Notes: generated by a model not told the origin, from the sequence alone. A DNA stretch of 32,000 nt from Candidatus Saccharimonadota bacterium (GCA_039920285.1 JBDSDX010000001.1:120001-152000), one strand, 5' to 3'; counted from the first letter of the stretch, positions 1,548 through 24,271 are shown. Program-made: numbers and translations.

Positions 1548-1624
1548 TGGTACACCCGGCGCGATTCGAACGCACGACCTTCGGCTCCGCAAGCCGACGC
1601 TCTATCCAGCTGAGCTACGGGTGC
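1548..1624 (-). tRNA. tRNA-Arg (anticodon GCG), CCA encoded
   Basis: Reverse complement folds by hand as a 77-nt cloverleaf: GCACCCG TA GCTC AGCTGGATA GAGC G TCGGC TTGCGGA GCCGA AGGTC GTGCG TTCGAAT CGCGC CGGGTGC ACCA. The anticodon loop is TT-GCG-GA. Confidence 0.9.
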
Positions 1625-1748
1625 ATATATACAACCCGTTGTCTTAAGAACAACGGGCTATATTATTGTAACTAGAAGGTGCTTTCTACTCACTAGAAAG
1701 CGAGCGAACAAAGGCCATTGTACCATAGCGAGAAGGGAAAAACTACTC

Positions 1749-2375
1749 CTAGAGGCGGAGTTTACGGATGACAACATCGATAATGTCGAGTTTCAAATCT
1801 TCCATAGGAAGTCGCTGTCCGAGCATATCAACGATCTCTTCGCCCGCTTCGACAGGGAAGTACACTGAGACTCCCGGTGAGAAGCGTTTTCGAGGAATCA
1901 GCATAATTGAATTGTGTTCGCCGTCTCGGATAAGCCCAAAAGCCTTAAACTCATCGTAGTGATAGAGTTTTTCGCCGACGTATAGGCCTTGATTGCCACT
2001 GAGACCATAAGTAAGTGTCCGGGGTGGACGACGAGTGTAGATGATAAGAGCGACTGCCATGACTATAACTAACCCCGAGAATGTCCATGAGCGTAAGAGG
2101 AAGACATCAACTGCTATTAAGCCAAGGACAACTATCGCAAAAATAATAAACCATAGAGGACTCTTATCGATGTGAACGTACTCTTGAGCCGTCCATGTGA
2201 CTGGTGCTTGTACAGGAAGACCCGTTTCAGTTGAAGGAGTTTCCTCAGGAGATTCTTCAAAGGTTTCTTCTTCAGGCACAGCTTCTCCAGGAGCCTCTTC
2301 CGAAGTCACTTCTTCATCCGTTGGTTCGGTTGTTTGTGGATCTTCCCAATAGTTCTGATCTTCTTCAGGTTTCAT
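1749..2375 (-). CDS. Hypothetical membrane protein (acidic/Pro-rich N-terminus, two TM helices, compact C-terminal domain)
   Basis: 208-aa ORF. The N-terminal ~60 aa are E/P/T-rich, followed by two hydrophobic helices (LWFIIFAIVVLGLIAVDVFLL, FSGLVIVMAVALIIY). The C-terminal ~100 aa could be a bacterial PH-like domain, which is a guess. Confidence 0.5.
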   Translation of the reverse strand: MKPEEDQNYWEDPQTTEPTDEEVTSEEAPGEAVPEEETFEESPEETPSTETGLPVQAPVTWTAQEYVHIDKSPLWFIIFAIVVLGLIAVDVFLLRSWTFSGLVIVMAVALIIYTRRPPRTLTYGLSGNQGLYVGEKLYHYDEFKAFGLIRDGEHNSIMLIPRKRFSPGVSVYFPVEAGEEIVDMLGQRLPMEDLKLDIIDVVIRKLRL

Positions 2376-2451
2376 ATCTTACCCCAGTATAGCATGAGCA
2401 TCACCGAGGCTTAGCCAAAGAAAAAAGCCCTTATTCAGGACTTATTTCTTA

Positions 2452-2544
2452 TGGCGGAGGAGGAGAGATTCGAACTCTCGCTCCAGGTCTCCCCAGACTA
2501 ACGATTTAGCAAACCGTCCCCTTCAGCCGCTTGGGTACTCCTCC
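2452..2544 (-). tRNA. tRNA-Ser (anticodon GCU), long variable arm, CCA encoded
   Basis: 93-nt reverse complement: GGAGGAG TA ... ACGGT TTGCTAA ATCGT, a long variable arm, then GAGAG TTCGAAT CTCTC CTCCTCC G CCA. The anticodon loop is TT-GCT-AA. Confidence 0.9.
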
Positions 2545-2629
2545 ACACTGGAGGTTCACTTTTGAGGTGAACGACTTGACCGATTGTAGCATAAAACAGG
2601 GGTTGCGACTAGTATTTGAGGTCGTTATT

Positions 2630-2638
2630 TGCTATAAT
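2630..2638 (+). promoter_or_regulatory. Extended -10 promoter (TGcTATAAT) for pilin-like gene P1
   Basis: tgctataat lies 32 nt upstream of the ATG at 2671. GAGGA (2661-2665) serves as a Shine-Dalgarno sequence 5 nt before the ATG. Confidence 0.55.
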
Positions 2639-2670
2639 GTAAGTATAGTTATCTAATATTGAGGAACGAC

Positions 2671-3078
2671 ATGCGCAAGGTAATAAAAACAATTCAACCA
2701 ATTCTGTGGGCGATTGTTTTTGTGGCCGTTTCGGCACTTGGTATTAGTAGTAGCGTCTCTGCATACAGCATTCAAGAAGGAGTAAACGCCGCACGCGGTA
2801 CCAATCAACCGAGCGAACTCTTCGGTGCTGGTGGTGTTATCACTACTGTGACAAACACACTTTTGTTCATCGTTGGTGCCCTCAGCGTCATCATGATTAT
2901 TTTCGGCGGCCTCCGCTATGTTGTCTCTGGTGGTAACTCAACAGCCGTATCAGCCGCAAAAAACACTATCCTCTACGCGATTGTAGGGCTCGTTATCGCT
3001 TTCTTAGCTTTTGCCGCGGTGAACTTTATCCTTGGTAATCTTGAGCCCGGTACTGGCGCTGGATATACCAACATCTAA
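2671..3078 (+). CDS. T4SS pilin-like small membrane protein (VirB2/TrbC-type), paralog P1
   Basis: I prefer the ATG at 2671 preceded by GAGGA; the ORF track started at the TTG at 2659. It has a signal peptide ending SVSA|YS. Two C-terminal TM helices flank a short polar loop (LLFIVGALSVIMIIFGGLRYVVSGGNSTAVSAAKNTILYAIVGLVIAFLAFAAVNFILG). This architecture is shared with the five ORFs at 4610-6688. Confidence 0.7.
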   Translation: MRKVIKTIQPILWAIVFVAVSALGISSSVSAYSIQEGVNAARGTNQPSELFGAGGVITTVTNTLLFIVGALSVIMIIFGGLRYVVSGGNSTAVSAAKNTILYAIVGLVIAFLAFAAVNFILGNLEPGTGAGYTNI

Positions 3079-3099
3079 CATACCCTTGTCATAAAAAGA

Positions 3100-3124
3100 G
3101 GCGACCGTGAAGGTCGTCACTTTT
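3100..3124 (+). terminator. Rho-independent terminator after P1
   Basis: Stem ggcgacc / ggtcgtc (one G-U pair), loop gtgaa, followed by ac-tttt. Confidence 0.6.
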
Positions 3125-3127
3125 ATA

Positions 3128-3215
3128 TGGCGGAGGGGGAGAGATTCGAACTCTCGGTGAGTTGCCCCACTCCGGTTTTCAAGACCGGTGCACTAAACCA
3201 CTATGCGACCCCTCC
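3128..3215 (-). tRNA. tRNA-Ser (anticodon UGA), CCA encoded
   Basis: 88-nt reverse complement: GGAGGGG ... CCGGT CTTGAAA ACCGG, a long variable arm, then GAGAG TTCGAAT CTCTC CCCCTCC G CCA. The anticodon loop is CT-TGA-AA. Confidence 0.9.
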
Positions 3216-4609: not shown

Positions 4610-5020
4610 CTATGCGCCTGGGGTGATAGCGCCGAGTACCCAGTTGACGATTGCGAAGGCCAAGAAGGCAACAACGAGACCAATCAATGCGTACATAATA
4701 GTGCTTTTCGCCGCAGTCACTGCTGTGCTGTCGCCAGCTGAGATAGTGTAGCGGATACCACCAACGATCAGCATAATAACGCTGATTGCACCGATAACGA
4801 ACAACAGTACGTTCACAACAGTGGTGAAGATTGAAGTCTCACCGAAGAGTGTGGTTGGTGTGTTGTTACCCTGGGCACAGTTCACACCGCTTCCAGCTGA
4901 TAAATCACTTGTGTTACACGCCGCACCTACTGCAGGGGCAAGAGGGCTCACCACAGCAACGAGTGCTAGGGCTGATCCGACGATCAGGGTCTTGATCGCG
5001 TTCTTTGTTACTATTTTCAT
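4610..5020 (-). CDS. T4SS pilin-like small membrane protein, paralog P2
   Basis: Signal peptide ending AVGA|AC, a Cys pair in the mature N-terminus, and a C-terminal core (LLFVIGAISVIMLIVGGIRYTISAGDSTAVTAAKSTIMYALIGLVVAFLAFAIVNWVLG) closely matching P1. Confidence 0.7.
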   Translation of the reverse strand: MKIVTKNAIKTLIVGSALALVAVVSPLAPAVGAACNTSDLSAGSGVNCAQGNNTPTTLFGETSIFTTVVNVLLFVIGAISVIMLIVGGIRYTISAGDSTAVTAAKSTIMYALIGLVVAFLAFAIVNWVLGAITPGA

Positions 5021-5056
5021 TTGGGTTAGTTTCCTTTCTTGTAGAATCTATCGTTA

Positions 5057-5085
5057 TTTATAGCAGATTAACGGTCATTTGTTAA
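5057..5085 (-). promoter_or_regulatory. Promoter for P2 (TTAACA-17-TGcTATAAA, minus strand)
   Basis: Minus strand reads ttaaca-aatgaccgttaatctgc-tataaa, with TG at the extended -10 position. AAGGAAA lies before the ATG at 5020. Confidence 0.55.
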
Positions 5086-5096
5086 GAGCTGATCCC

Positions 5097-5477
5097 TTAA
5101 ACAAACTGCGTGATGACCCAGTTGACGATTGCAAACGCCAGGAAGGCGATGACAAGCCCCGCAACAGCGTACGTCAGTGTATCTTTAGCTCGTTTAATAC
5201 GGCTCGAATCACCAGTCGACGTTGTATACATAATACCGGCAACGATAATCATAATGACCGACAGAGCACCGACAACAAAGAGAAGAACATTCACCACTTG
5301 TGTAATAGTGGTTGAGATATTATCATTTTTGTCTTTACAGACAGCTGATCCGGAGTTGTTTGCACACGCACCTTGTAGTGGGTCAACATTAATCGCGCTT
5401 GTCGCTGGAACAAGTGCCAGACTAAGCCCAAGGACGACCATGACGCCCATAATAAGTTGTTTTATACGTTGTTTCAT
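5097..5477 (-). CDS. T4SS pilin-like small membrane protein, paralog P3
   Basis: Signal peptide ending ATSA|IN, the Cys pair GACANNSGSAVC, and the core LLFVVGALSVIMIIVAGIMYTTSTGDSSRIKRAKDTLTYAVAGLVIAFLAFAIVNWV. Its start directly abuts the P4 stop. Confidence 0.7.
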   Translation of the reverse strand: MKQRIKQLIMGVMVVLGLSLALVPATSAINVDPLQGACANNSGSAVCKDKNDNISTTITQVVNVLLFVVGALSVIMIIVAGIMYTTSTGDSSRIKRAKDTLTYAVAGLVIAFLAFAIVNWVITQFV

Positions 5478-5780
5478 TTAAAATCTCCCAATCACGAAGT
5501 TAGTAATAGCAAATGCTGACAGAATAATAACTAAGCCTGCGATAGCGTAGAGTATTAGGCCCTTAGCTTTAGTGAGCTTGCCCGCATCACCTGCAGAAGT
5601 AGCGTACGAAATACCAGCAACGATAATGACAATCACCGCAATGGTACCGCCGACAAAATAGGCGAGATTAAGTCCATTTTGAAGGAGTTCGTCACCCGTG
5701 GTAGTAGGGAGGTTCTGAACATCTCCCGGTCCCGTACCCTGGGTAAGTTTTTGTGCAAATTGTACCAAAAAATAATACAT
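5478..5780 (-). CDS. T4SS pilin-like small membrane protein, paralog P4 (no obvious signal peptide)
   Basis: Core YFVGGTIAVIVIIVAGISYATSAGDAGKLTKAKGLILYAIAGLVIILSAFAITNFVIG is homologous to P1-P3. The N-terminus MYYFLVQFAQKLTQGTGPGD lacks a classical h-region and AxA site. Confidence 0.6.
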   Translation of the reverse strand: MYYFLVQFAQKLTQGTGPGDVQNLPTTTGDELLQNGLNLAYFVGGTIAVIVIIVAGISYATSAGDAGKLTKAKGLILYAIAGLVIILSAFAITNFVIGRF

Positions 5781-5784
5781 ATAG

Positions 5785-6261
5785 TTATCCGTTAATCAGC
5801 TTAAATATTAAGTTAGTCACACCAATTGCCGACATTGAAATTGCCAAGCCAATCACCGCATGAAGAATGGTGAGTCGAGCTTTTTCGATCTGCGCAGGAA
5901 CACTTCCGCCTGTGAGGTATTGGAAACCTCCAAACAATACGAAGAAGAGGGCAACATATCCCACCAAGAAGAGGGCGATCTCGATAACATTCAATACAAT
6001 ACGCCAAATGAAGGTGCTGAGACGCGCGCCCGAATCGGCACCGAGTCTTGGATCACTCGGTGACCATATCTCACAGCTAGCGCCTGCGCCATCTGTCAAA
6101 CCTCGATACCATACTGGCATACCAAGGATACGATTCTCACACCCAGGGGCGGCGGCAAACGTTGTCTGCGGAACAGCGACTGTCATCACTGGAGCAGCGA
6201 TGAAAACAGCAAATGCGAGAGTAATAAATAATTTTTTAAGTAATTTCGTTTTTATAATCAT
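5785..6261 (-). CDS. T4SS pilin-like small membrane protein, paralog P5 (divergent)
   Basis: I prefer the ATG at 6261 (MIIKTKLLKK...), 1 nt after the P6 stop; the track's 6273 start is a TTG. It has a signal peptide ending TFAAA|PGC and a Cys pair. The two-TM core is LFLVGYVALFFVLFGGFQYLTGGSVPAQIEKARLTILHAVIGLAISMSAIGVTNLIF. Confidence 0.6.
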   Translation of the reverse strand: MIIKTKLLKKLFITLAFAVFIAAPVMTVAVPQTTFAAAPGCENRILGMPVWYRGLTDGAGASCEIWSPSDPRLGADSGARLSTFIWRIVLNVIEIALFLVGYVALFFVLFGGFQYLTGGSVPAQIEKARLTILHAVIGLAISMSAIGVTNLIFKLING

Positions 6262-6262
6262 A

Positions 6263-6688
6263 TTAATTAGCAAATAGTCCGCCTGGTATTAAGAAGTTAA
6301 GCAACGAATACATCAACGCGTACGCAATAACACCAATTACTATATTAGTAATGATCTGCATAGCCTTCTTAACCTGTTCCGGACTGCCTCCTGCCGACGT
6401 ATACATAATAGACGCATAGACGATACCCGCAACCGTCACAATACCAACGCCAGCGGTTAGGATGTTGATAATAAGGAGTAAGATGCCCCAAGCACCAGTT
6501 CCCTCAACACCGCCCGTACCATCTTGAGTACAGCTAATGACCCCTGTTTCAACACCCCCACAACAGTTCGTCTGGGCTGAAGGAACACAGGTCGCGCCAA
6601 CACTCGCAGGGATAGCGATAAATGACGCCAATCCGATAATTAAAGTAGCGCCAACGATGAACTGTTTTACTTTTTGTTTTATGTTCAT
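6263..6688 (-). CDS. T4SS pilin-like small membrane protein, paralog P6 (divergent, 4 Cys)
   Basis: Signal peptide ending SVGA|TC, four Cys residues (TCVPSAQTNCCGGVETGVISC), and the core ILTAGVGIVTVAGIVYASIMYTSAGGSPEQVKKAMQIITNIVIGVIAYALMYSLLNFL. Confidence 0.6.
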   Translation of the reverse strand: MNIKQKVKQFIVGATLIIGLASFIAIPASVGATCVPSAQTNCCGGVETGVISCTQDGTGGVEGTGAWGILLLIINILTAGVGIVTVAGIVYASIMYTSAGGSPEQVKKAMQIITNIVIGVIAYALMYSLLNFLIPGGLFAN

Positions 6689-7785: not shown

Positions 7786-10700
7786 ATGAATAGGCGGCTT
7801 TTAAAGAAATCGTTATTGCTCCGGCTTTTTGTTGCCCCTATGATTGTGGCGATGATTATTTCATCAGGTTTCATCGGTGCACTTAATCAAGCAAATGCCG
7901 CACTAAAAGCGACCGCGATGACTCCTGAGGAGAAAATCGAATCAGCACTCCTCTATAGATCAGTTGGTATTTGTTTGAAGAATGCTGGATTGAGAGACGG
8001 TGATGGCGTGTCTCTCTCTCGTATCAAAGAATCAAATGCTAAAATTGGTGCTTGGTTCAACGATCGTGCAAATGGCAAAGAGGGCGTCGCCCCTATTGGT
8101 GCTTATATGCGCGACACCGTCCAGAAACTACCAGGCGTTGGTGATGACTACAAACTTGACTGTGACCAACCGGAATTCATCCTTAAAGCCCTCAACTTAT
8201 GGAAACCTGGTGAAAATGGGGCGGACAATGGCCTGACACTCCTCTGTAATGCTGGCTTTGTTCGCACAAACCACAAAGATGATACACCCGCATCATGTAT
8301 TGCTGGGACGGGTGACCTCGAACGAAAGGCTGACTACAGTAACTTCAATACAGTGTACGGAGCACAGGGTAACGACAAGAGTGCTGGTCTATATGAGAGT
8401 TATATTGGAGGTCTCATTTACAACGCTGGTGGCTCAACCAACCCTATTGATGGCTGGAACTCGGTCGATTGGTACTGGTACTATACAAAGACATTCAACT
8501 GGAGCTGTGGCTACGGCAAAATGAAGAGCTCGCAAGCACTTAAATCCGAAGCTGAGGCAGGGGGAGGTGATAAAGCTTATAATATATGGAAAGCTCAGAA
8601 CGATGGAACAGTAACTAAGAGCCAATGGTATGTCGGCTTACTTGCCAAGACTGAGTCAGTTATTGTTCGGCCAAACGACGCAAGGACAAATCAAGACTAT
8701 ACAAAAACTTGTGAATTTATAGCTGGGCAAATAAATCGTTTTGCCCAAGATTATGCGACCTACAGTCTAAATAAAGTAGTGACCGCAAACTGTACAGCTA
8801 AGGGCTACAAAACACCCGACCTCGTGCCTTGTATCAATGGTGGTATCAACAGAAATAGTGACGGAACAATAAATGCACTGTACTGTGCAGACACCTACAA
8901 AACTGACCCTGCCTTAGCTGCCTGTAAAGCAGGTGCCACAACTAATGTTTCAGGCTCTGCCGAGGAAGCAGCCTCTACAACCGGTGTTGACAAGCCAGGC
9001 ACAGCCGACCAACCTTGTGAAATCGATGGAGCGTTGGGTTGGGTTATATGTCCGGCGATCCGATTCTTAGCAGGTGTCAGTGACGGGGTATTTACCTTCC
9101 TTGCTGATAGTCTTCTCAAGGTTGATCCAAAAATCTTAGCTAGCGGCACCGCTAACCCAACGTATAATGCCTGGATTATTATGCGCAATGTCGCTAACGT
9201 TGCCTTCGTTATTGTGTTCTTAATTATTATCTTCTCCCAATTGACCGGTGCAGGTATTACAAACTATGGTGTAAAGAAAATGCTGCCAAGGCTCGTCATT
9301 GCGGCCATATTAGTGAATCTGTCTTATTTTGTGTGTCAAATCGCAGTAGATCTTTCCAATATCTTAGGTTATTCCGTGAAAGGAGCCCTTGATGCGATAG
9401 GGGAAAATATCGCCAGTGTTAATGCGGTCGTAGGACAGACCAATGCTTCAAACCCCGACTTCGTTGGTATGACAAACAGTGCACTTGGACAGGCAGGTTC
9501 AGTGCTCCTGCTTCTCTCTATTCTCATACCAATCATGATAGCGGGGCTTATTGCAATTATTATCATCGTGTTTATGTTAATTGGACGACAAGCGATTCTT
9601 GTTATGCTAATCGTTATATCACCGCTTGCATTCGTCGCATTCCTATTACCAAACACACAAAACTTATTCACTCAGTGGCGTAAAATTTTTACGACGCTTC
9701 TCATGATGTTTCCGATTATATCGGCAGTGTTTGGTCTCTCAAGCTTAACGTCAACTATCCTTGCGGGTGCATTTACAGAAAACGCAGATGGGGGAGTTCC
9801 TGGTTTTATTAATCAAATCCTCGCAGCGGGCGTTCTCGTTCTACCACTCTTCCTTGTCCCAATGATCCTCAAAAAATCACTTGATGGTATTGGTTCGATT
9901 GGTGCCGCAATGAATGCCGCCGGCAACAAGGCTCGTAGTGGTGCAAACGCTGTAAAGGGTGCCGGAAAGAGCCTCGCAAAGACCGGAGCCAATGCTGGTC
10001 TCGGACGTTTAGCGAATACGAAGTTTGGTGCATCAAGAGGTGGGCGAATACTGGGTGGTATTGCTTCAGGTAAAGGTCGTCGTGGTTTTAGCGCAATGGG
10101 TGAGGCGCATGAAGCACAGACTAATAAAAATATTCAATCGCAATGGCAACGAGATGGCACCTATAACAACAGCGCAAAGCTTGAAAGTATCGCCAAAAGT
10201 AAGCCAAACTCGAGCGAAGGCCGAGCGGCTATGCACGCATTATCATCAAAGGGTGATGCGAACGAGCTTTCACGTGTTCGCCGCCATTTAGACTCAACGG
10301 GTAATACAGAAGGTATGAAAGCATTACAGCGTGCCACCGATTCAAACTTCTCAGCTCTTAAAGCCAAAAACCCGAGTGCGGTTCAGCCTATGAAACACAG
10401 CGACTGGGGCAATCTCAAAGCTGTTGAAACCTTTGGTATGAAGGATGAAGCAATTACTGAAGGTATCGCATCAAGCCCACAATTTGCACAAACCGTTAAG
10501 GCCGCGGCTCTTGATCCGCTCACTGCGAGAAACTACTCTGCCGATACTATTGCCTGGGCAAAGGGTGGCGTCCTTCCTGGTGGAGGTTCGACGAGTCCTG
10601 CTGGTCAAGCAAACCACAACGCCGCCGTTGCTGCTGGCATGAAATCGTCATCAGGCGGGCCTGCAAATATCCCAGGTGGAGGCAATCCTATTGTTACTCC

Positions 10701-11355
10701 TGGAGCTGGTGCAGCACCTGCACAACCAACACAGCCACTCGTTACTCCAGCTAGCGTTGCGGCAGCAACCGCTGCCTCAACCTCAACAAGTACAGTAGGG
10801 GATGGAAGTCGTCGTGTCGTCACCACACAAGGTGCACCAACGGCAGGTCCAACTATCGTCAATGGTATGCCGACTGGCGTCATGACGGCAACATCAACAG
10901 CCTCAGCACCTCCAACAACGACTGTTACTATGAACTCTTCAGGTGGTCGTCGGGTAACAACTTCATCGCCGAGCGCCGCTGCACCGACAACCGTAGCCGC
11001 ACCTGCAGCACAAGCTGAAAATATTGACCTACAAGTTACACACGATACCGCTCCAGCGGCTCCAGTTGCCTTTGGCTCTGGTGGTGCAAGTACGACACCT
11101 TCGAAACCTTCTCGACGAGTCCAAAGTACTGATGGCGCCTTTATTGTGAATGGTGGAGGAGAAACAACAGTTGCTATTAGACAAGCGCCCGTCGTTAGCG
11201 CTGCTGATTCTCAAGCTTCAGCTCGTGCCGCAGCCGTTGCAGCTGCAAAGAATGAACAATCGGGTGCCGGTGCCCGGGGGAGTAGTGCTGATAGTTCAGG
11301 CTTCCGTGCTCCAAATGGTGCCGGTGACGACTACCAAGACGGCATGAACAAATAG
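7786..11355 (+). CDS. Large polytopic membrane protein, VirB6/TrbL-like T4SS channel candidate, with Cys-rich N-terminal ectodomain and long low-complexity C-terminal tail
   Basis: 1189 aa. The signal peptide ends NQANA|AL and is followed by a ~400-aa Cys-containing soluble domain. A block of roughly 6-8 TM helices spans about nt 9040-9890 (VANVAFVIVFLIIIFSQL..., LVIAAILVNLSYFVCQIAV..., LLLLSILIPIMIAGLIAIIIIVFML..., ILVMLIVISPLAFVAFLL..., LLMMFPIISAVFGL..., AGVLVLPLFLVPMIL). The C-terminal ~490 aa end in an A/P/T/S/G-rich region. The VirB6 call rests on topology and operon position next to the PrgI/VirB4 genes. Confidence 0.5.
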   Translation: MNRRLLKKSLLLRLFVAPMIVAMIISSGFIGALNQANAALKATAMTPEEKIESALLYRSVGICLKNAGLRDGDGVSLSRIKESNAKIGAWFNDRANGKEGVAPIGAYMRDTVQKLPGVGDDYKLDCDQPEFILKALNLWKPGENGADNGLTLLCNAGFVRTNHKDDTPASCIAGTGDLERKADYSNFNTVYGAQGNDKSAGLYESYIGGLIYNAGGSTNPIDGWNSVDWYWYYTKTFNWSCGYGKMKSSQALKSEAEAGGGDKAYNIWKAQNDGTVTKSQWYVGLLAKTESVIVRPNDARTNQDYTKTCEFIAGQINRFAQDYATYSLNKVVTANCTAKGYKTPDLVPCINGGINRNSDGTINALYCADTYKTDPALAACKAGATTNVSGSAEEAASTTGVDKPGTADQPCEIDGALGWVICPAIRFLAGVSDGVFTFLADSLLKVDPKILASGTANPTYNAWIIMRNVANVAFVIVFLIIIFSQLTGAGITNYGVKKMLPRLVIAAILVNLSYFVCQIAVDLSNILGYSVKGALDAIGENIASVNAVVGQTNASNPDFVGMTNSALGQAGSVLLLLSILIPIMIAGLIAIIIIVFMLIGRQAILVMLIVISPLAFVAFLLPNTQNLFTQWRKIFTTLLMMFPIISAVFGLSSLTSTILAGAFTENADGGVPGFINQILAAGVLVLPLFLVPMILKKSLDGIGSIGAAMNAAGNKARSGANAVKGAGKSLAKTGANAGLGRLANTKFGASRGGRILGGIASGKGRRGFSAMGEAHEAQTNKNIQSQWQRDGTYNNSAKLESIAKSKPNSSEGRAAMHALSSKGDANELSRVRRHLDSTGNTEGMKALQRATDSNFSALKAKNPSAVQPMKHSDWGNLKAVETFGMKDEAITEGIASSPQFAQTVKAAALDPLTARNYSADTIAWAKGGVLPGGGSTSPAGQANHNAAVAAGMKSSSGGPANIPGGGNPIVTPGAGAAPAQPTQPLVTPASVAAATAASTSTSTVGDGSRRVVTTQGAPTAGPTIVNGMPTGVMTATSTASAPPTTTVTMNSSGGRRVTTSSPSAAAPTTVAAPAAQAENIDLQVTHDTAPAAPVAFGSGGASTTPSKPSRRVQSTDGAFIVNGGGETTVAIRQAPVVSAADSQASARAAAVAAAKNEQSGAGARGSSADSSGFRAPNGAGDDYQDGMNK

Positions 11356-11399: not shown

Positions 11400-12329
11400 A
11401 TGGCAGAGTATAAGGTTCCGCAGGATGTCGAGGCGGATGACAAACTAATTGGACCGTTCAGTTTTCGGCAGTTTGTTTACCTTATCATCGTTGCGCTTGC
11501 TGGTGCTGCCGCGTGGGGATTAGGCCAGCTTTTTATTCCGTTAGCGATCATCCCACTCCCTGTTATTTTACTGTTTGGTGCGCTCGCCCTACCACTTCGA
11601 AAAGATCAACCGATGGAGATCTATCTTGCAGCAATGATTGCATTTTTCTTGAAACCACGTCGACGATTGTGGGATCCGGATGGCATCGAATCATTAATTG
11701 AAATCACGGTTCCAAAAGTTGTCGAAGCGCAACTGACGAAAGATATTACTCAAGCTGATGCCGACCAACGTTTTGGCTACCTTGCCAATCTTGTCGACAG
11801 TCAGGGCTGGGCTGTACGTGGACAGGGGATGCAAAACGGACCTATCAATAGCGACATCTACCTCGAGGCTCAAGGTGCAAATGATCTGCTCGACGGAAGC
11901 AACCCTATTTCACAGTCATTCAGTAATATGATGATAGATAGCGACGATCGTCGTCGTCAGGAAATGATTGATCGTATGCATCAACAGGCCGCTGCAGCTG
12001 CACAGCCAGTCACACCACCAACTCCTTCGACCTTTACGACACCTGACCCACCGACACCTATTTACAACCCGTACCCAACCGAGATTCAGCAAGCCGTCAT
12101 TCAGCCGATTAGTGCGGATCCGTTTGCGACACAACCAACACTGCCAGTTACCCCAGTTATTCCAGATGTTCCGATTCCTCAAACCACTAGCGATAACCCT
12201 GTATCTGCTGGTATAATGAATCTTGCAAACAATACCGATTTGTCGATTGAGACAATTGCGCACGAAGCAAACCGTATCCAGCAGCAACAAGATAATATGC
12301 AGGAAGAAGTGGTTATCTCTCTGCGATAA
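11400..12329 (+). CDS. PrgI family (VirB3-like) T4SS membrane protein with Pro-rich C-terminal extension
   Basis: The N-terminus MAEYKVPQDVEADDKLIGPFSFRQFVYLIIVALAGAAAWGL, followed by a second TM helix, matches the PrgI-family signature as I remember it (Y.VP.d.e.eDKi.g.ft.rQ). It lies immediately upstream of VirB4. The C-terminal half is P/T/Q-rich. Confidence 0.65.
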   Translation: MAEYKVPQDVEADDKLIGPFSFRQFVYLIIVALAGAAAWGLGQLFIPLAIIPLPVILLFGALALPLRKDQPMEIYLAAMIAFFLKPRRRLWDPDGIESLIEITVPKVVEAQLTKDITQADADQRFGYLANLVDSQGWAVRGQGMQNGPINSDIYLEAQGANDLLDGSNPISQSFSNMMIDSDDRRRQEMIDRMHQQAAAAAQPVTPPTPSTFTTPDPPTPIYNPYPTEIQQAVIQPISADPFATQPTLPVTPVIPDVPIPQTTSDNPVSAGIMNLANNTDLSIETIAHEANRIQQQQDNMQEEVVISLR

Positions 12330-12366: not shown

Positions 12367-13257
12367 ATGCCGCCGAATAATCCATTTTTTACGACACCGT
12401 CCGCACCTCCAGGACAACCTCCGGCAGCGCCGTCTCCTTTTGGTACGCCGCCACAACCGGTTGCACCAATCGTAGCCGCTCCTGTCGCTGCTCCTCAAGC
12501 CGCTGGCTCGGGAGCGAACACTCCAACCAAGGCGACACCTCGTAACCCGAACTCAACTCAGAATACACTCCAGCTATCTGAAATCCGTGACAACATGGTC
12601 ATCATGGCTGATGGGACGTTCCGTGCCGTTGTCTCATGTCGTTCGATCAACTTCGATCTTATGAGTGAACGCGAGCGTGAAGGAGTGGAGTATAGCTACC
12701 AAAGCTTCCTTAACTCACTGACATTCCCTGTCCAAATCGTCATTCGCTCAGAACGGGTTGATATTGGTCCGTACATTGAACACCTTCTTTCATTACGTCG
12801 TGGCCAAGACAACATGCTTCTTGGCGTATTGATGGACGATTATATTAACTTTATCGACGTCCTGTCTCAAGAAGCGAATATCATGGAGAAATCTTTCTAC
12901 ATTACCGTCCCATTCTATCCACAAGGTGATATCTCTAGTATCGTCGAGCAGAGCAAGGGCTTCTTCGGCAAACTCATGTCAAAACCAAAAAATACCATTA
13001 CTAAGATTGATAAAGTCGCATACCAAAAAGCCAAAGATGAAATCAAGAATCGCATTGAAGTGGTTATCTCTGGTTTGGCTGCCATTGGTGTTCAAAGCGT
13101 TCAGCTCAATACAAAAGAGTTGGGTGAGCTGTATTACAACTTCTACAACCCCGATACCGCTGTTCGTCAGCCGCTAGGTAACTTTGATAATCTCACTAGT
13201 ATGTACACCAAAAAAGCTGATCCAAGCACTGCTCCAACCTCAGGAGGAATACTGTAA
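12367..13257 (+). CDS. VirB4 N-terminal-domain-like protein (putative split-off N-terminal module of the T4SS ATPase), Pro-rich N-terminus
   Basis: After ~65 P/A-rich residues it reads LQLSEIRDNMVIMADGTFRAVVSCRSINFDLMSEREREGVEYSYQSFLNSLTFPVQIVIRSERVDI. This resembles the extreme N-terminal region of Gram-positive-type VirB4 proteins (PrgJ/TrsE/Orf16-like). There is no Walker motif. Its stop overlaps the next start as TAATG at 13255-13259. Confidence 0.45.
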   Translation: MPPNNPFFTTPSAPPGQPPAAPSPFGTPPQPVAPIVAAPVAAPQAAGSGANTPTKATPRNPNSTQNTLQLSEIRDNMVIMADGTFRAVVSCRSINFDLMSEREREGVEYSYQSFLNSLTFPVQIVIRSERVDIGPYIEHLLSLRRGQDNMLLGVLMDDYINFIDVLSQEANIMEKSFYITVPFYPQGDISSIVEQSKGFFGKLMSKPKNTITKIDKVAYQKAKDEIKNRIEVVISGLAAIGVQSVQLNTKELGELYYNFYNPDTAVRQPLGNFDNLTSMYTKKADPSTAPTSGGIL

Positions 13258-15098
13258 TGGCACGAAAACCAACCGCAGCTGAAATTGCCAATCAACAACG
13301 CGCCAAAGAGCAAGCTGAAGTCGACCAAGCCTTTGCTAAGGGTGTCACCACTCTTCGTGATTTGATTGCACCAAGTAGTATTGAAATTACGAGTTCGTAT
13401 TTCCGCCTCGGAACCAAATATGGTCGTACGATTTATATCTACGGCTATCCTCGCCAGATTTACACTGGTTGGTTAAGTGGCCTCATTAATATTGATGAAG
13501 TTCTTGATGTCAGCATGTTCATCTATCCTGTCGACAGCCAAGTCGTCTTGAATAACTTGCGTAAAAAAGTAACGCAACTCGAAGCAAGCACGTCGATCAA
13601 TAACGAAAAAGGGAAGACCCGTGATCCTGGACTCGAAGCAGCTATTAACGATGCTGAAGAACTTCGTGACCAACTCCAAGTTGGCGCCGAGCGTTTCTTC
13701 CGTTACGGTCTGTATGTCACACTGTACGCCGATAGTGTTGAAGAGCTTGATTTCGTCCAACACAAAATTGAAACAATGTTCGGTCAGCAACTTGTCTTTA
13801 GCAAGGTAGCAAGTAGCCAACAGGAACAAGGCTTGAACAGTACTATTCCTCAAATGACTGATCAGCTTCAGATTCGTCGCAACATGAACACTGGCGCAAT
13901 CAGCACCAGCTTCCCATTCACGAGTGCCGACCTCACCCAAGATAAGGGAATTCTCTACGGCATCAACATGCACAACAATGGTCTGGTTATCTTCGACCGT
14001 TTTAGCCTCGAGAATGCCAATATGGTTGTCTTCGCGAAGTCTGGTGCAGGTAAATCATTTACTGTGAAGCTTGAAGCCCTCCGTAGCATGATGACTGGGA
14101 GTGAAGTGATCATCATTGACCCAGAAAATGAATACCAGAAGTTGTCTGATGCTGTCGGGGGAGCGTACATTCGCTTAAGTCTTAACTCGGCAACTCGTAT
14201 CAATCCATTTGATCTTCCTCGTGTGATTGATAATGATGAGGCTGACGACGCACTACGCGCCAACCTTGTGACACTACACGGACTATTCCGTCTCATGCTC
14301 GGTGGAACACAGGTTGCCAGTAATGGTGTCCCGATTTCATCACTCAATCCAGTTGAGGAAGCTGACCTCGACCAAGCTCTGATTGATACGTACGCACGTG
14401 TTGGTATTACCAGCGACCCACTGACACACAACTCGCCACCGCCAACCATTTCTGATCTTTACGATACCCTTCTTCATATGGGTGGAACTGGTCCTGGACT
14501 CGCACAGCGACTCCGTAAATATACGACAGGAACATTTGCTGGTATCTTTAGTCAACAATCAAATATCGACATTAATAACCCGATGGTTGTCTTTAATATT
14601 CGCGACCTTGAAGACGAACTGCGTCCAGTCGCAATGTATATTGTCTTGAGTCACATTTGGAACATTACCCGAACCGAGAAAAAGAAACGTATGCTGATCG
14701 TGGACGAGGCGTGGCAATTGATGAAATACGATGACTCGGCAAATTTCTTGTTTAGCCTCGCAAAGCGCGCTCGTAAATATTACCTTGGTCTCACCACCAT
14801 TACCCAAGACGTTGAAGACTTTATGGGAAGCAAAATGGGTCGTGCGATCGTTGCCAACAGTTCAATGCAACTTCTTTTGAAGCAATCTTCAAGTGCAGTT
14901 GATGTTCTGTCGGATGTCTTTAAACTCACTGAAGAAGAGAAAAAACGTCTGGCGAACTTCCCGGTCGGACAAGGACTCTTCTTCGCTGGACAAAACCATG
15001 TTCACATCCAAATCCAAGCCAGCCCAACCGAAGCACAGCTTATTACCACGAACCCCCAGATAGCAACTCAAAACCCCGACGGAACCTCGGGCGTATAG
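13257..15098 (+). CDS. virB4: VirB4-family T4SS ATPase (PrgJ/TrsE-like)
   Basis: Walker A AKSGAGKS (14034-14057) and Walker B MLIVDEA (14691-14711). Upstream is the VirB4-type region DLIAPSSIEI...GRTIYIYGYPRQIYTGWLSGL. Motifs IIDPENEY and TTITQDVEDF are typical of VirB4/TraC-class ATPases. Confidence 0.85.
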   Translation: MARKPTAAEIANQQRAKEQAEVDQAFAKGVTTLRDLIAPSSIEITSSYFRLGTKYGRTIYIYGYPRQIYTGWLSGLINIDEVLDVSMFIYPVDSQVVLNNLRKKVTQLEASTSINNEKGKTRDPGLEAAINDAEELRDQLQVGAERFFRYGLYVTLYADSVEELDFVQHKIETMFGQQLVFSKVASSQQEQGLNSTIPQMTDQLQIRRNMNTGAISTSFPFTSADLTQDKGILYGINMHNNGLVIFDRFSLENANMVVFAKSGAGKSFTVKLEALRSMMTGSEVIIIDPENEYQKLSDAVGGAYIRLSLNSATRINPFDLPRVIDNDEADDALRANLVTLHGLFRLMLGGTQVASNGVPISSLNPVEEADLDQALIDTYARVGITSDPLTHNSPPPTISDLYDTLLHMGGTGPGLAQRLRKYTTGTFAGIFSQQSNIDINNPMVVFNIRDLEDELRPVAMYIVLSHIWNITRTEKKKRMLIVDEAWQLMKYDDSANFLFSLAKRARKYYLGLTTITQDVEDFMGSKMGRAIVANSSMQLLLKQSSSAVDVLSDVFKLTEEEKKRLANFPVGQGLFFAGQNHVHIQIQASPTEAQLITTNPQIATQNPDGTSGV

Positions 15099-15117: not shown

Positions 15118-18100
15118 ATGGGGCCCCAAGACAACGACGAAAATAACCCAGGCCAACAAAATGCTGACAGAACGTTTGGCTCAGACTCGCGAGATCTTAG
15201 AGGTGCCGAGGATACCGGTAACTGGAAAACACGAGTAGGAGATACTGCAAGGGATGCTGCACAAGACGTCGCCAAAAAAGCTCTAAGAAAAACAGAAGGC
15301 GAAGTAGCGGAAAAGGTCGCGGCTAAAGCAGGAGCAAAAATGGCGACAAAACTGGCCGCTGGAGCAGCAACAGGGGTTGAAACGGCTGGTGTCGGAGCTG
15401 CTCTCGCTGTTGCTGATATTCTTCGAGATAAAGATACGCGCAATCTTCTTGCCAAAAAGATCCTCCCTGTTATTATTGGTCTCGTGATTCTCATAACCGG
15501 TGGTGCAATTGGCATTATTTTGACTGGTCTCCTCGCGCCAATTGCTTTTTTCGATACACTGTTTGATGATTTAAATGACCAAGTACCGGCGCTCGACATG
15601 CGTAATCAAGCAGCACTTAATAACATGGTACCGAACAACGTCAAGGCAGCAGCACTCGATACATGTAAGAGCTCTCCAGAATCAATCATCTGTCGTTCTA
15701 GGACGTTGTCTGAAACCCAAATCACACGACTTCAACGCGCCGGTATTGAGGTGAGTGGGGATAAATACGGAGATAGGCTATTACCAACATCATACACATT
15801 CAAAGATAAGTCGTACGATCCCAATGAATTTGCCAAAGCCGTTCAAAATGATGATACCTTACGACTCGCATACAAACGTGCTTTCAATATGAAGGTGTTG
15901 GGTTTTAGTGACGCTTCGTTTGTAGGCAACACGCTGACGCGTTTCGGTGGTTCAAAACAAGCACCAGATCTTCAGGGGAGTCATGAAGATAAAGTAAATC
16001 AACTTATTAACCGACAAAAGGCGAGTAACGCTGACGGATCTGCAACAGACAAAACTTCAACAATTCCTGCCGACGCTGTCTTTGTACCTGTAAAAACAAA
16101 TGATGACGGTACCCCGGCTGAAGGTACTACCTACACACTAAAAGGAAGTACGTCCGGTGAAGAGTTTACTCAGGCTGACGTCGATAAGGTTAATGCAGCT
16201 AAAACAACAACTCCTTCCGGTGACACTCCTCCGACTCAAATCGGCGATCTTATAATCGGAAGTGCCAGTGCTTTTGGTTACTGGGACCTTGCTTGCACAG
16301 TTAAAAGTATGGTGGCGGCGGCATCGTTGTCTGCAAAGGTCGCAAACCAATCGGCAATCGTGAATTATGTCCAACCAGTGGCGGCGCTCGCATATAAAGC
16401 AAAGGCAGGAGACATATCGGTGAGCGATAGTCAGGTACTCGCTGAATATTTCAACAAAACTGATAATCGAAAACAGATTGAGTCGCCGGCGGCGAGTTAT
16501 GAAAATGCGACTATTGATGGGACAACAATTAAACCGGAATCTGGAAGTAGTAAGCTGATCGATAACCCAAATTATGGGAAAACCGCACTGGATTCACCGT
16601 TATTTAAAATGTCTCTCAATGGTGGAAGTAACCCTGGTACGACCGTTGCTGATAGTCAGTATGGGCTCGGTGTCAGTGTGAAGTCATTATTTGGTGGCAC
16701 ATCGAGTGCCGCCTCGGATACGATTGATGCTCTCAATAACGTCGGAAGTACGATAGACGACGCAACCTGTGCGGTTGTGCAAAACCCTATTGTTCGAGGA
16801 GTTGGTCTTATCTTTGGTTTATCTGGTGGGTTAATTACAGGTGCCGGAACGCTCGCCATAAAACTTCCTGTCTTGATCAACCTCGCGAACGGTGCGGTGA
16901 CATTAAATAAAATTATTCAAAACGGCAAAGCTGGTGCGGTCATCCCAGATAACCTCAGTGATTCTCCAGCCGACCTCGGAACACTGAGTTGGAACTATGT
17001 CACTGCTGTGTCTGGTCAAGCAGCTCAAAATAGAGGCCTTACCGGTGGAAACGCTCAGGAAGTCTTGGCATACCAAAAACTTGGTGCACAAAGTAAATCA
17101 GATTATATCGCTATTGAACAACAAGACACCAGTCCGCTCGATGCAACAAGTAAATACTCATTCCTCGGATCCCTCCTTTTGACACTTTCAACTATGACAA
17201 CGTCGCAGTTTAGTGGAAGCTCTTCACTTCGCAATATAGCGGGTATTGTTGCAGGGAGTGCTGCCGCAATCGTAAAACCGGCGAATACGTATGCTGCCAC
17301 TATCGATCCGGGTCGATTCGAACACTGTGACGACGTTGCCTATTCAAATGTCGGCATCAGTCCAGATGTCGAATGTAATATTCGTTATGTTATGTCAGCA
17401 GAAGATCTCAACCTCGACACCTATGATGTTCAGAAGGCAATGGGAAGTAGTGCGTGTGGCGGAAATGCCTGTGTCGACACCCTCACCACAACGGGATATC
17501 CTGATGGGTACTCACCAGTCGACCCTACATCTGTTCAGAAGTTTGCTGATAGTTTTATAAAAGGAAGTGACCCAACACTCTATGCCGATCGATTGAGCTC
17601 TGGTGTATATGATAACGACTACGCCAAATTCCTTGATTTCTGTGCATACCGTGCGCTCCCATATGGACAAACCTATGACCTAACAGGCCTCGATGAGAAA
17701 TGGCAAACGGGTGAGATATGTAAAACTGCTGGTGCCCCCTACAGTTACTACCGTGTGTACACACTCGATAACACAGCTCTCGAAGCACGCGACAAAGTCT
17801 ATGATTTTGCATCATCTCCACAAGGTAGTTTAAGTACAGGACGCCCAGAAAATACTGATGACTATGGTAACGGCTGGATCCTCCGTAACGGTGTTGATTA
17901 CTCATCATTCCAGTGCGATCCTCGAACAACTGATGCTGGAAAATACACAAACCCCGATCGTGGCTATACGATTCGTGTTTGCGACACAAAAATAGCCGGA
18001 ATTAAAACGACAACCAACGCACTCGTTTCAACAAATTTCATGAATATGTATGAAGCGGCAAAGAAGGATGGTATTACATTCTTCCTAGCTGAAAGTCTTC

Positions 18101-18387
18101 GTAAAAATACAGATCAATATTACAGTGCTCAGTCGCGACACAGTATGGGTCTCGCGTTCGACCTTGGATCATCCCAAAACGGAAACGGAAGTTGGTGTTA
18201 TTCTGGTCCTGCTGGTGACCTTGGTGGGGCAATAGCTTGTCGTTCAAGGACTGGTGCGGCTGGTGATGCTGTTCGCTGGATGGATGCACATGCTGCCGAG
18301 TATGGATTCCAAAACCTCAACAACGAGCCATGGCACTGGTCAACTGGTGAATCTGGTGGTCAATTTAACACGAAGAAGTTGCAGTAA
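15118..18387 (+). CDS. Large membrane-anchored extracellular protein with C-terminal VanY/M15-type (LAS family) peptidoglycan peptidase domain
   Basis: 1089 aa. One TM helix lies near aa 115-150 (ILPVIIGLVILITGGAIGIILTGLLAPIAFF). The ~800-aa central region has no motif I recognise. The C-terminus carries SRHSMGLAFD (18133-18162; SxHxxGxAxD) and EPWHW (18325-18339; ExxH), which are the zinc ligand motifs of D-Ala-D-Ala carboxypeptidase VanY/M15 enzymes. Confidence 0.6.
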   Translation: MGPQDNDENNPGQQNADRTFGSDSRDLRGAEDTGNWKTRVGDTARDAAQDVAKKALRKTEGEVAEKVAAKAGAKMATKLAAGAATGVETAGVGAALAVADILRDKDTRNLLAKKILPVIIGLVILITGGAIGIILTGLLAPIAFFDTLFDDLNDQVPALDMRNQAALNNMVPNNVKAAALDTCKSSPESIICRSRTLSETQITRLQRAGIEVSGDKYGDRLLPTSYTFKDKSYDPNEFAKAVQNDDTLRLAYKRAFNMKVLGFSDASFVGNTLTRFGGSKQAPDLQGSHEDKVNQLINRQKASNADGSATDKTSTIPADAVFVPVKTNDDGTPAEGTTYTLKGSTSGEEFTQADVDKVNAAKTTTPSGDTPPTQIGDLIIGSASAFGYWDLACTVKSMVAAASLSAKVANQSAIVNYVQPVAALAYKAKAGDISVSDSQVLAEYFNKTDNRKQIESPAASYENATIDGTTIKPESGSSKLIDNPNYGKTALDSPLFKMSLNGGSNPGTTVADSQYGLGVSVKSLFGGTSSAASDTIDALNNVGSTIDDATCAVVQNPIVRGVGLIFGLSGGLITGAGTLAIKLPVLINLANGAVTLNKIIQNGKAGAVIPDNLSDSPADLGTLSWNYVTAVSGQAAQNRGLTGGNAQEVLAYQKLGAQSKSDYIAIEQQDTSPLDATSKYSFLGSLLLTLSTMTTSQFSGSSSLRNIAGIVAGSAAAIVKPANTYAATIDPGRFEHCDDVAYSNVGISPDVECNIRYVMSAEDLNLDTYDVQKAMGSSACGGNACVDTLTTTGYPDGYSPVDPTSVQKFADSFIKGSDPTLYADRLSSGVYDNDYAKFLDFCAYRALPYGQTYDLTGLDEKWQTGEICKTAGAPYSYYRVYTLDNTALEARDKVYDFASSPQGSLSTGRPENTDDYGNGWILRNGVDYSSFQCDPRTTDAGKYTNPDRGYTIRVCDTKIAGIKTTTNALVSTNFMNMYEAAKKDGITFFLAESLRKNTDQYYSAQSRHSMGLAFDLGSSQNGNGSWCYSGPAGDLGGAIACRSRTGAAGDAVRWMDAHAAEYGFQNLNNEPWHWSTGESGGQFNTKKLQ

Positions 18388-24055: not shown

Positions 24056-24271
24056 ACATTTTCACTGCTATTACACTTTAGTATACGGTACCAACAGAGT
24101 TTTCCACAACCATAAATGACATAACAAAGTGAGAGGTCAAATAGAGGTACCAGTTGTACACAGTTGCGAGCTCCCTCTGTTAATGTGTGGAAAAGGGGAG
24201 CAATACTGGGGATAAGTTTATATATAAAGTAACGAATCTTCGAAAAATCAAACATAAGAGGGGCGGGGGAG
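24056..24271. other. Putative oriC segment 2 (upstream of dnaA): DnaA boxes plus AT-rich stretch
   Basis: TTTTCCACA (24100-24108) and its inverted copy TGTGGAAAA (24186-24194); TGGGGATAA (24207-24215, reverse complement TTATCCCCA). An AT-rich stretch lies at 24216-24258 and TGTACACA at 24155-24162. Confidence 0.6.

Follow-up and report, generated by a model that had tools for sequence, protein, structure and literature searches.

What a 1089-amino acid (aa) protein ending in peptidase motifs contributes to a type IV secretion system (T4SS) is the question raised by this locus. The protein, referred to here as the carrier, is encoded immediately 3' of the VirB4 ATPase gene in a 32,000-nucleotide (nt) stretch of DNA from a Candidatus (Ca.) Saccharimonadota bacterium (GCA_039920285.1 JBDSDX010000001.1:120001-152000). 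This stretch is called the window. A first-pass annotation, made from the sequence alone, had described a giant wall-cutting T4SS component or effector with two VanY/M15 zinc-peptidase motifs. Translation confirmed the open reading frame (ORF), which starts with an ATG behind a weak GAGAG Shine-Dalgarno sequence, and both motifs at the positions given by that annotation. We favour, with a probability of roughly 0.6, the reading that the protein is anchored in the T4SS and bears a wall-breaching enzyme.

By sequence and by modelled fold, the C-terminal ~165 aa belong to the M15B/VanY family and are predicted to be catalytic. Pfam VanY (PF02557) matched aa 1004-1075 with 27.8 bits against a curated cut-off of 25 (E=2.4e-6). 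The last 170 aa were aligned with the tails of seven orthologues (26-88% identity) from further species of Saccharibacteria. In these eight sequences R995, S1006, H1008, G1011, A1013, D1015, F1064, E1070, W1072, H1073 and W1074 are invariant. Used as a profile against PDB sequences, the alignment matched VanY-B (5hnm, 6a6a, 5zhf) at E of about 2-4e-13 and the LdcB L,D-carboxypeptidases 4ox3, 4mph, 4jid and 4ox5 at 1e-12 to 4e-11. It also matched the Listeria phage L-Ala-D-Glu peptidase Ply500 (2vo9, 8e-10), LysB4 and VanXY (4mur, 4f78), with the listed solved chains reaching E=3e-6. The LAS zinc-peptidase motifs named in the first-pass annotation are therefore upheld, with Pfam above its cut-off, profile E-values from 2e-13 to 3e-6 and a complete catalytic set. 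The recognisable domain is larger than the ~130 aa estimated there, spanning ~165 aa (aa ~913-1078).

A full-length AlphaFold2 model was built from an 82-sequence alignment (mean predicted local distance difference test score (pLDDT) 79.1; predicted template modelling score 0.75). The C-terminal blocks have pLDDT values mostly of 80-97 (aa 920-1020 and 1040-1078), and the Cys1027-Cys1041 insertion has values of 57-76. Foldseek with the model against PDB returned solely LdcB, VanY, VanX and Hedgehog N-terminal domains; the first ten matches had a probability of 1.00 and target-normalised TM-scores of 0.39-0.47. Against BFVD it returned solely phage M15B/VanY proteins. The four kinds of protein matched in PDB between them define the LAS fold, and thus the domain models as a LAS fold. 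The two outcomes that would have spoken against a peptidase, a different fold or motifs lost among orthologues, did not occur: the model is LAS and the catalytic residues are invariant. With the C-terminal domain alone as query, a set of 5.8 billion proteins yielded one protein (P0162), which begins in the junction/linker region and is probably a fragment of a carrier family member.

The domain shares the Arg, SxHxxGxAxD and ExxH motifs with VanY, LdcB, VanXY and Ply500. Those are enzymes of ~180-280 aa or endolysin modules, whereas here the domain is a cassette of a 1089-aa protein. Compared with VanY and LdcB, it is ~20 residues shorter between the Arg and SxH motifs, and it has a Cys-bracketed loop insertion at aa ~1020-1045. 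The spacer between the Arg (SLR995) and SxH is ~10 residues in the clade of the window protein (18094-18162, aa 993-1015), compared with ~25-30 residues, the 'YEEQ...PG' segment, in remoter M15B-tailed orthologues and in solved VanY and LdcB. The shortened spacer could alter the substrate cleft.

A family profile was used to search 1.84 billion cluster representatives with hmmsearch, which generated 487 representatives at E<=1e-30, matching profile positions ~1-755 or ~1-865. Most members are 950-1100 aa long and a subset is 1200-1590 aa. A re-search of the 5.8-billion-protein set with the family profile added no new members. A scan of GTDB, with each species represented by a single genome, found 23 loci (L001-L023), of which 22 are titled Saccharibacteria or Saccharimonadales and one 'bacterium'; among the named loci, the N-terminal module (N-module, ~790 aa) is confined to Saccharibacteria. 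The carrier gene directly follows PrgI-TrsD-VirB4 in 21/23 loci. The lysozyme partner lies next 3' in 15/23 loci, and a PEGA protein is directly 3' in a few, whatever the tail type. In the window the ATG of the lysozyme gene overlaps the stop codon of the carrier (TAATG), and this overlap, with the position immediately after VirB4 in 21/23 loci, bears out the earlier assignment to the T4SS. That the architecture is unusual, as was also claimed, is not supported. PrgK-like hydrolases are large, membrane-anchored and multidomain, including LytM (PMC11323569), and in Saccharibacteria the architecture is the rule (487 representatives).

One of the two exceptions to the gene order (L014; 232-10610 of CP011211.1, Ca. 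Saccharibacteria GW2011_GWC2_44_17) contains two tandem carrier plus lysozyme pairs. The order is an 852-aa M23 protein, lysozyme, a 573-aa unknown ORF, a 989-aa M23 carrier, lysozyme and PEGA, then recF-dnaN. The two carriers are 23% identical (E=1e-44), and the tandem pairs represent a hydrolase module expanded through paralogues. The components of the operon were compared by their global identity to the window proteins. VirB4 is 84-96% identical, TrsD 59-86%, PrgI 50-80%, the carrier N-module 28-68% and the lysozyme partner 27-64%. The exposed components therefore evolve several times faster than the VirB4 motor.

The C-terminal enzyme is an exchangeable cassette with a sharp breakpoint after the family junction motif FRxYTxD. 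Pfam identified VanY in 9 of 21 species proteins (best E=2.5e-19), Peptidase_M23 in 8, CHAP in 2 and an extra Exo_endo_phos domain in 2. Single representatives carry NlpC/P60, Peptidase_C39_2, Glucosaminidase plus M23 (P0040), Exo_endo_phos alone, or Alginate_lyase2 (E=7e-39). A set of 144 tails from cluster representatives and close homologues was classified with locally built hidden Markov models seeded on Pfam-checked examples. These were M23 (56/144), Endonuclease/Exonuclease/Phosphatase (EEP, PF03372) plus M23 (15), glucosaminidase plus M23 (3), a motif-only 'HxH' class (23), M15B (20), CHAP with or without EEP (8), NlpC/P60 (4), EEP alone (2), alginate lyase (1), C39-like (1), another cysteine peptidase (1), short tails without a domain (6) and unclassified tails (4). 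There are at least 10 tail types. EEP occurs in 24/144 tails (~17%), before an M23 or CHAP domain or alone. L012, L015/L016, P0045, P0108 and P0040 are examples of members with EEP, alginate lyase or glucosaminidase tails. The 'HxH' tails (23/144; P0010, P0014/L008, P0020, P0025, P0031, P0034 and others) contain an SxH-x2-G-x-[AS]-x-D-like motif and a C-terminal CNHxH. This class had no Pfam match at E<=0.01 and no PDB sequence match at E<=10. The class resembles LAS enzymes by motif only and may represent a LAS subfamily not yet described; we do not claim these tails as peptidases.

Exchange is evident when closely related members are compared. P0079 (M23) and P0075 (M15B) show 67% identity across the 815 residues that end in ...FRxYTIDKSISDAMDDE, and beyond that point nothing in them is similar. 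A tail is of the same class as that of its closest N-module neighbour in just 60/135 cases. The cysteine-peptidase-like domain of the downstream lysozyme partner and the tail of P0127, a member of the carrier family, are homologous (35% identity, E=6e-20), so cassettes also move between the carrier and the adjacent lysozyme gene. A conserved N-terminal region with unrelated, swappable C-terminal domains behind a sharp junction is one feature of polymorphic toxin and effector systems, and the carrier family has it. Known examples of swappable enzymes on long proteins are the polymorphic toxins Rhs, CdiA, LXG and evolved VgrG/PAAR, and the phage tail lysins and tape-measure proteins with M23/M15 domains. 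Like the carrier, they have a long conserved N-module, a junction motif and exchangeable enzymes carried on a penetrating apparatus. Unlike the polymorphic toxins, the carrier has a transmembrane anchor, no linked immunity gene and no known trafficking or self-cleavage domain; its N-module has no structural similarity to the phage proteins in BFVD. A cognate immunity gene co-varying with the tail was looked for directly 3' in the 23 loci, with small ORFs checked non-exhaustively, and none was found. Pfam at E<=10 detected no LXG, Rhs/YD, PAAR, VENN or PT-TG-like trafficking or pre-toxin domain in aa 101-900.

The remainder of the protein has no recognisable relative. Pfam at E<=10, NCBIfam and PDB sequence searches with aa ~100-900 gave no match, nor did the N-module match any of 72,556 plasmids by tblastn. 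The product contains 14 Cys overall, and the earlier description of a Cys-containing central region without a recognisable motif stands. In the 21-species alignment Cys183, Cys192, Cys393, Cys551, Cys842 and Cys868 are invariant, and Cys737 and Cys753 nearly so. The four conserved Cys pairs of the N-module and the two pairs of the LAS domain would suit an extracytoplasmic, disulfide-bonded ectodomain. The motif just outside the transmembrane helix includes DLNDQ, which is invariant in 21 species. Structure prediction and Foldseek, proposed earlier as a check on the central region, succeeded in part. The model is usable and largely helical, including small beta units and a predicted 45-residue helix (385-429), and only a variable insert at 300-350 has low confidence; the searches of PDB and BFVD returned noise only (probability <=0.03). 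The N-module was also considered as a VirB6/ConG homologue, a known-fold adhesin or a phage tape-measure relative, and these candidates were dropped because no search supported them. At least five transmembrane helices are expected of VirB6/ConG/PrgH proteins; the carrier has one strong helix and one possible hairpin.

The charged ~110-aa start (32% charged) and the hydrophobic helix behind it (Kyte-Doolittle 2.64) agree with the earlier description. Lys and Arg residues before the helix and acidic residues after it suggest that aa 1-110 are cytoplasmic. That this helix is the single one, as the first-pass annotation had it, is doubtful. A second, conserved hydrophobic helix-turn-helix is found at aa ~553-606, where the family medians of the best 17-residue Kyte-Doolittle windows are 1.74 and 1.90. 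Between 72 and 82% of family members exceed 1.6 in these windows, and charged residues number about two in 47. The segment could form either a hairpin in the membrane, with both flanks then outside the cell, or a buried core.

The family had been noticed before in Ca. Southlakia epibionticum ML1. Its T4SS (SEML1_0006-0019) is essential for epibiotic growth (Wang et al. 2023, PMC10633639). The gene that immediately follows VirB4 there, SEML1_0007 (3342 bp), was scored GD/ES/ES by Tn-seq (PMC10633639 supplementary tables). DPAM assigned a 'Hedgehog/DD-peptidase' domain to its aa 951-1105 and left the first 950 aa unassigned, and its Foldseek neighbours are annotated as 'Peptidase M15B' and 'Peptidase M23' domain proteins (PMC10633639), a mixture that fits cassette swapping. 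Like the carrier, SEML1_0007 lies between VirB4 (SEML1_0008) and a lysozyme protein (SEML1_0006), followed by PEGA and recF-dnaN-dnaA. Its size is similar (1113 vs 1089 aa), its peptidase domain is C-terminal, and its orthology to the carrier is positional. 'Peptidase and lysozyme homologues' have been suggested to fill the VirB1 role (PMC12102498), and the VirB1-like label was repeated in a 2025 review. The core finding is already known in that SEML1_0007 is annotated and essential, and the window protein adds a member to the family recorded for S. epibionticum. Set against the systems that have been characterised, it varies the theme of T4SS wall hydrolases in a new way. A non-exhaustive literature search found no paper that describes this family of N-modules or reports on the hairpin, the rate of divergence or the tail polymorphism, and no biochemical or structural work on SEML1_0007.

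TraG (pIP501) and TrsG (pGO1) are transmembrane-anchored peptidoglycan hydrolases with properties equivalent to those of PrgK (pCF10), which is encoded downstream of the VirB4-type ATPase PrgJ (gene order prgH-prgL). The carrier has the operon position of a VirB1-like protein, 19 nt 3' of VirB4, and would also have its topology, a cytoplasmic N-terminal segment, a transmembrane anchor and an extracellular domain. PrgK likewise has a cytoplasmic N-terminus, one transmembrane helix and extracellular hydrolase domains, including a LytM/M23 domain of the LAS superfamily (PMC11323569). It differs in carrying LytM, SLT and CHAP in one chain with a degenerate LytM, whereas the window protein has a single, apparently intact M15B behind a ~790-aa ectodomain. 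No glycosidase is encoded in ORF 15118-18387; unlike in PrgK-type hydrolases, the glycosidase is on a separate, coupled gene. Pfam and NCBIfam scans and the plasmid tblastn detected no similarity of the carrier to PrgK/TrsG/CD419-type hydrolases, whose own profiles were not used for searching. CwlT (ICEBs1) and Orf14 (Tn916) are hydrolases with muramidase and NlpC/P60 domains, encoded downstream of conE-conG. The order conE-conG-cwlT is comparable in that VirB4 is followed by a large membrane protein and a lysozyme/cysteine-peptidase protein, and the downstream ORF of the window would be the CwlT-like partner. ConG/Orf15, unlike the carrier, is polytopic, VirB6-like and without an enzyme domain; the carrier has at most three hydrophobic helices. 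By analogy, our best reading is that the carrier works like a Gram-positive T4SS hydrolase, with the division of labour of PrgK, TraG and CwlT.

Under the explanation that we prefer, a T4SS-anchored enzyme carrier, the protein would be an integral accessory subunit of the chromosomal T4SS that positions a peptidoglycan peptidase wherever the apparatus has to cross a cell wall. The N-terminal ~110 aa would lie in the cytoplasm near VirB4, TrsD and PrgI, with the transmembrane helix as anchor. The ~790-aa, disulfide-stabilised and mostly helical ectodomain would serve as scaffold or spacer, and may re-enter the membrane through the hydrophobic hairpin. At the distal end, the M15B domain would bind zinc through His1008, Asp1015 and His1073. 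Glu1070 would act as general base and Arg995 would stabilise the intermediate while a stem-peptide bond is hydrolysed. Together with the coupled lysozyme/cysteine-peptidase protein, the carrier would combine glycan-cutting and peptide-cutting activities. The swappable enzyme would be matched to the wall that has to be opened. Most plausibly this means both the epibiont's own wall and, where the cells touch, that of the actinobacterial host.

The competing readings overlap with the preferred one and with each other, and their likelihoods are not meant to sum to one. As a pure VirB1/PrgK analogue, the carrier would be a T4SS-assembly helper that loosens the epibiont's own peptidoglycan for the channel and the VirB2-like pilus and never acts on the host. 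Its place after VirB4 and its cytoplasmic N-terminus, transmembrane helix and extracellular hydrolase are all PrgK-like, a VirB1-substitute role has been proposed (PMC12102498), and Gram-positive T4SS hydrolases are modular too (PMC11323569). We nevertheless find this reading rather unlikely. It gives little reason for the repeated replacement of enzyme classes between N-modules that are 55-69% identical, and alginate lyase and EEP tails are hard to explain by it. The ~790-aa ectodomain is far longer than the cell's own wall requires, and the extracellular parts diverge much faster than VirB4. The sharp homology breakpoint after FRxYTxD and the variable linker that follows would suit a polymorphic T4SS-borne effector. 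Here the N-module would deliver or anchor a released or tip-exposed enzyme for opening the host envelope, assisting in its lysis or killing competitors, in analogy to evolved VgrG/PAAR, Rhs and CdiA toxins or phage tail lysins. The cassettes are of at least 10 types, with non-peptidoglycan enzymes such as alginate lyase and EEP (~17% of tails) among them, and the tandem carrier and lysozyme duplication in L014 and the fast divergence also agree with an effector. What makes this unlikely is the conserved lysozyme partner found 3' where a cassette-specific immunity-like gene would be expected, the lack of a known toxin-trafficking domain or autoproteolysis motif, and a transmembrane anchor that argues against release without processing. 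The T4SS locus of S. epibionticum also has no recognisable coupling protein (PMC10633639). Moreover, nearly all cassettes are wall hydrolases, which fit a built-in breaching tool equally well.

The nearest enzymes by sequence and structure, VanY and LdcB, are carboxypeptidases, and the tail could accordingly trim stem peptides, removing the terminal D-Ala or acting as an L,D-trimming enzyme in wall maturation or nutrient salvage, with its place in a T4SS operon a coincidence. Saccharibacteria lack amino-acid synthesis (PMC10633639), and freed D-Ala and the like could be scavenged. This seems quite improbable given the conserved place after VirB4, the translational coupling to lysozyme and the interchange with M23, CHAP and NlpC/P60 endopeptidase or amidase domains; known LdcB and VanY proteins are ~180-280 aa (solved chains) and have no ~800-aa extension. 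Even less probable is a non-catalytic tail that binds peptidoglycan or regulates, leaving hydrolysis to the downstream lysozyme protein. The precedent is the LytM of PrgK, which has no metal and merely modulates the muramidase (PMC11323569); the shortened Arg995-SxH segment of the window clade and the 6/144 family tails that are short and have no detectable domain point in the same direction. All five canonical catalytic and metal residues are, however, present and invariant down to 26% identity, the opposite of the degenerate PrgK site.

Several points weigh against the carrier of a wall-breaching enzyme as we describe it. The shortfall of ~20 residues between Arg995 and Ser1006, relative to canonical VanY and LdcB, could change or weaken activity. 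The M15B domain is secure, but the earlier term 'wall-cutting' is a prediction, since VanY and LdcB trim stem peptides rather than cross-links and do not open the wall. An endopeptidase role is deduced only from positional equivalence with M23, CHAP and NlpC/P60 cassettes, and with carboxypeptidases as the best-matching solved enzymes the bond that is cleaved cannot be deduced. The Foldseek TM-scores to LdcB and VanY, at 0.39-0.47, are no more than moderate, and which part of the query was matched is not stated in the output. The LytM of PrgK is peptidase-like yet degenerate and inactive (PMC11323569), so a domain match alone is no proof of catalysis. Because no structural relative of the N-module was found, its scaffold role is a guess. 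SEML1_0007 is a putative orthologue, identified by synteny, size and annotation. Finally, hydrolases are also modular in ordinary conjugative T4SSs that cross the donor wall only, so polymorphism alone is no sign of a host target.

We put the host wall as at least one substrate at slightly less than an even chance. We lean that far because of the cassette exchange, the non-peptidoglycan cassettes, the paralogue duplication and the fast divergence; polymorphism and fast divergence fit the first-pass idea that the host wall is cut rather than the cell's own, and do not prove it. A more far-reaching and rather doubtful proposal is that the T4SS has a built-in, swappable 'specialised effector', in which the orphan ectodomain, perhaps with a hairpin inserted in the membrane, would present host-envelope-degrading cassettes at the interface between epibiont and host. 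The cassette would be M15B in the window protein and M23, CHAP, NlpC/P60, EEP, glucosaminidase or alginate lyase in others.

Table 1. Carrier domains and motifs, and neighbouring genes (positions counted from the first nt of the window)
Feature	Position	Strand	Remarks
Carrier ORF, Saccharibacteria T4SS protein just 3' of VirB4	15118-18387	+	1089 aa, stop codon within coordinates; positional orthologue of SEML1_0007
Charged segment, aa 1-110	15118-15447	+	17 K/R, 18 D/E (32% charged); poorly conserved; low-confidence helical
Strong transmembrane helix, aa 113-139	15454-15534	+	window Kyte-Doolittle 2.64; family mean 2.14; hydrophobic stretch to about aa 145
APIAFFDTLFDDLNDQ, aa 140-155	15535-15582	+	most conserved motif of the family, just outside the transmembrane helix; contains DLNDQ; served as search pattern
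Orphan ectodomain part 1, aa 150-552	15565-16773	+	mostly helical, small beta units; conserved Cys183, Cys192, Cys393, Cys551
Hydrophobic helix-turn-helix, aa 553-606	16774-16935	+	possible membrane hairpin; conserved in family; turn 566-580 pLDDT <50
Orphan ectodomain part 2, aa 607-885	16936-17772	+	helical, high pLDDT; conserved Cys737, Cys753, Cys842, Cys868; junction motif at end
Junction motif YRVYTLD, aa 878-884	17749-17769	+	family consensus FRxYTxD; homology between differently tailed members stops just after
Variable linker, aa 886-912	17773-17853	+	pLDDT <50 at 899-907
M15B/VanY-type LAS-fold zinc peptidase domain (predicted), aa 913-1078	17854-18351	+	Cys933/Cys955 pair; Cys1027/Cys1041 loop insertion
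Arg995	18100-18102	+	invariant; equals conserved Arg of the VanY/LdcB 'SGxR' motif
SRHSMGLAFD, aa 1006-1015	18133-18162	+	SxHxxGxAxD motif; His1008 and Asp1015 predicted zinc ligands
EPWHW, aa 1070-1074	18325-18339	+	ExxH motif; Glu1070 predicted catalytic base, His1073 predicted third zinc ligand
VirB2-like pilin array	4610-6688	-	five small tandem ORFs (100-162 aa); two tested, both match T4SS_pilin PF18895
1189-aa ORF	7786-11355	+	six strong hydrophobic segments at aa ~14, 464, 503, 579, 634, 677
PrgI/VirB3	11400-12329
TrsD-like ORF, 296 aa	12367-13257	+	matches N-terminal part of VirB4 model and TrsD/TraD family (E about 1e-6)
VirB4 ATPase, conju_CD1110 family	13257-15098	+	378 bits; ends 19 nt before carrier ORF
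Downstream partner, 411 aa	18387-19622	+	Phage_lysozyme2 aa 104-235; cysteine-peptidase-like domain aa 238-407
recF, dnaN, dnaA	20244-24505	-	directly after T4SS operon

The other genes of this monoderm-type T4SS locus are given in Table 1. The TrsD-like ORF overlaps the VirB4 ORF by one base. The two were considered as a split or frameshifted VirB4, and this was rejected; the first is a TrsD-like protein that resembles the VirB4 N-terminus. A TrsD-like protein is the commonest T4SS component in Patescibacteria (PMC12102498). The 1189-aa ORF had no Pfam or NCBIfam match. It is likely an 'extended VirB6'-type channel subunit and a better VirB6-like candidate than the carrier. The window has this one large ORF, compared with two in S. 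epibionticum (SEML1_0011 and SEML1_0013) around an NTF2-like gene. A 321-aa ORF lies between it and the pilin array. VirB2-like pilin arrays were previously described for Saccharibacteria and are unusual for a monoderm T4SS. Downstream, the cysteine-peptidase-like domain of the lysozyme protein (aa 238-407) had no Pfam match, and a PEGA protein gene follows in the same operon. The locus order is that of SEML1_0004-0020 of Ca. Southlakia epibionticum ML1, including the dnaA/dnaN/recF side.

Three near-consensus DnaA boxes, with one mismatch each, lie in the intergenic region upstream of dnaA (24100-24215), which is probably oriC; the DnaA-box count across the window is not significant (13 vs 8 expected). 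Three tRNA genes, Arg-GCG, Ser-GCT and Ser-TGA, are at 1548-3215 (-), and beyond tRNAs an Rfam scan of the window gave no family at gathering score.

Judged by SEML1_0007, the carrier is an essential, uncharacterised part of the T4SS, and its orphan module, hairpin and cassette swapping provide a testable handle on that essential machine. With no relative solved or annotated, the large N-module family is a good target for structural biology. If the tail is an active stem-peptide peptidase exchanged between lineages, it offers a testable hypothesis for how an ultrasmall epibiont crosses the thick actinobacterial wall and for what determines its host range. Should the doubtful 'specialised effector' proposal prove true, cassette swapping would adapt the epibiont to the chemotype of its actinobacterial host's wall, and the family would form a new, T4SS-borne class of polymorphic enzyme carriers that helps to determine host range.

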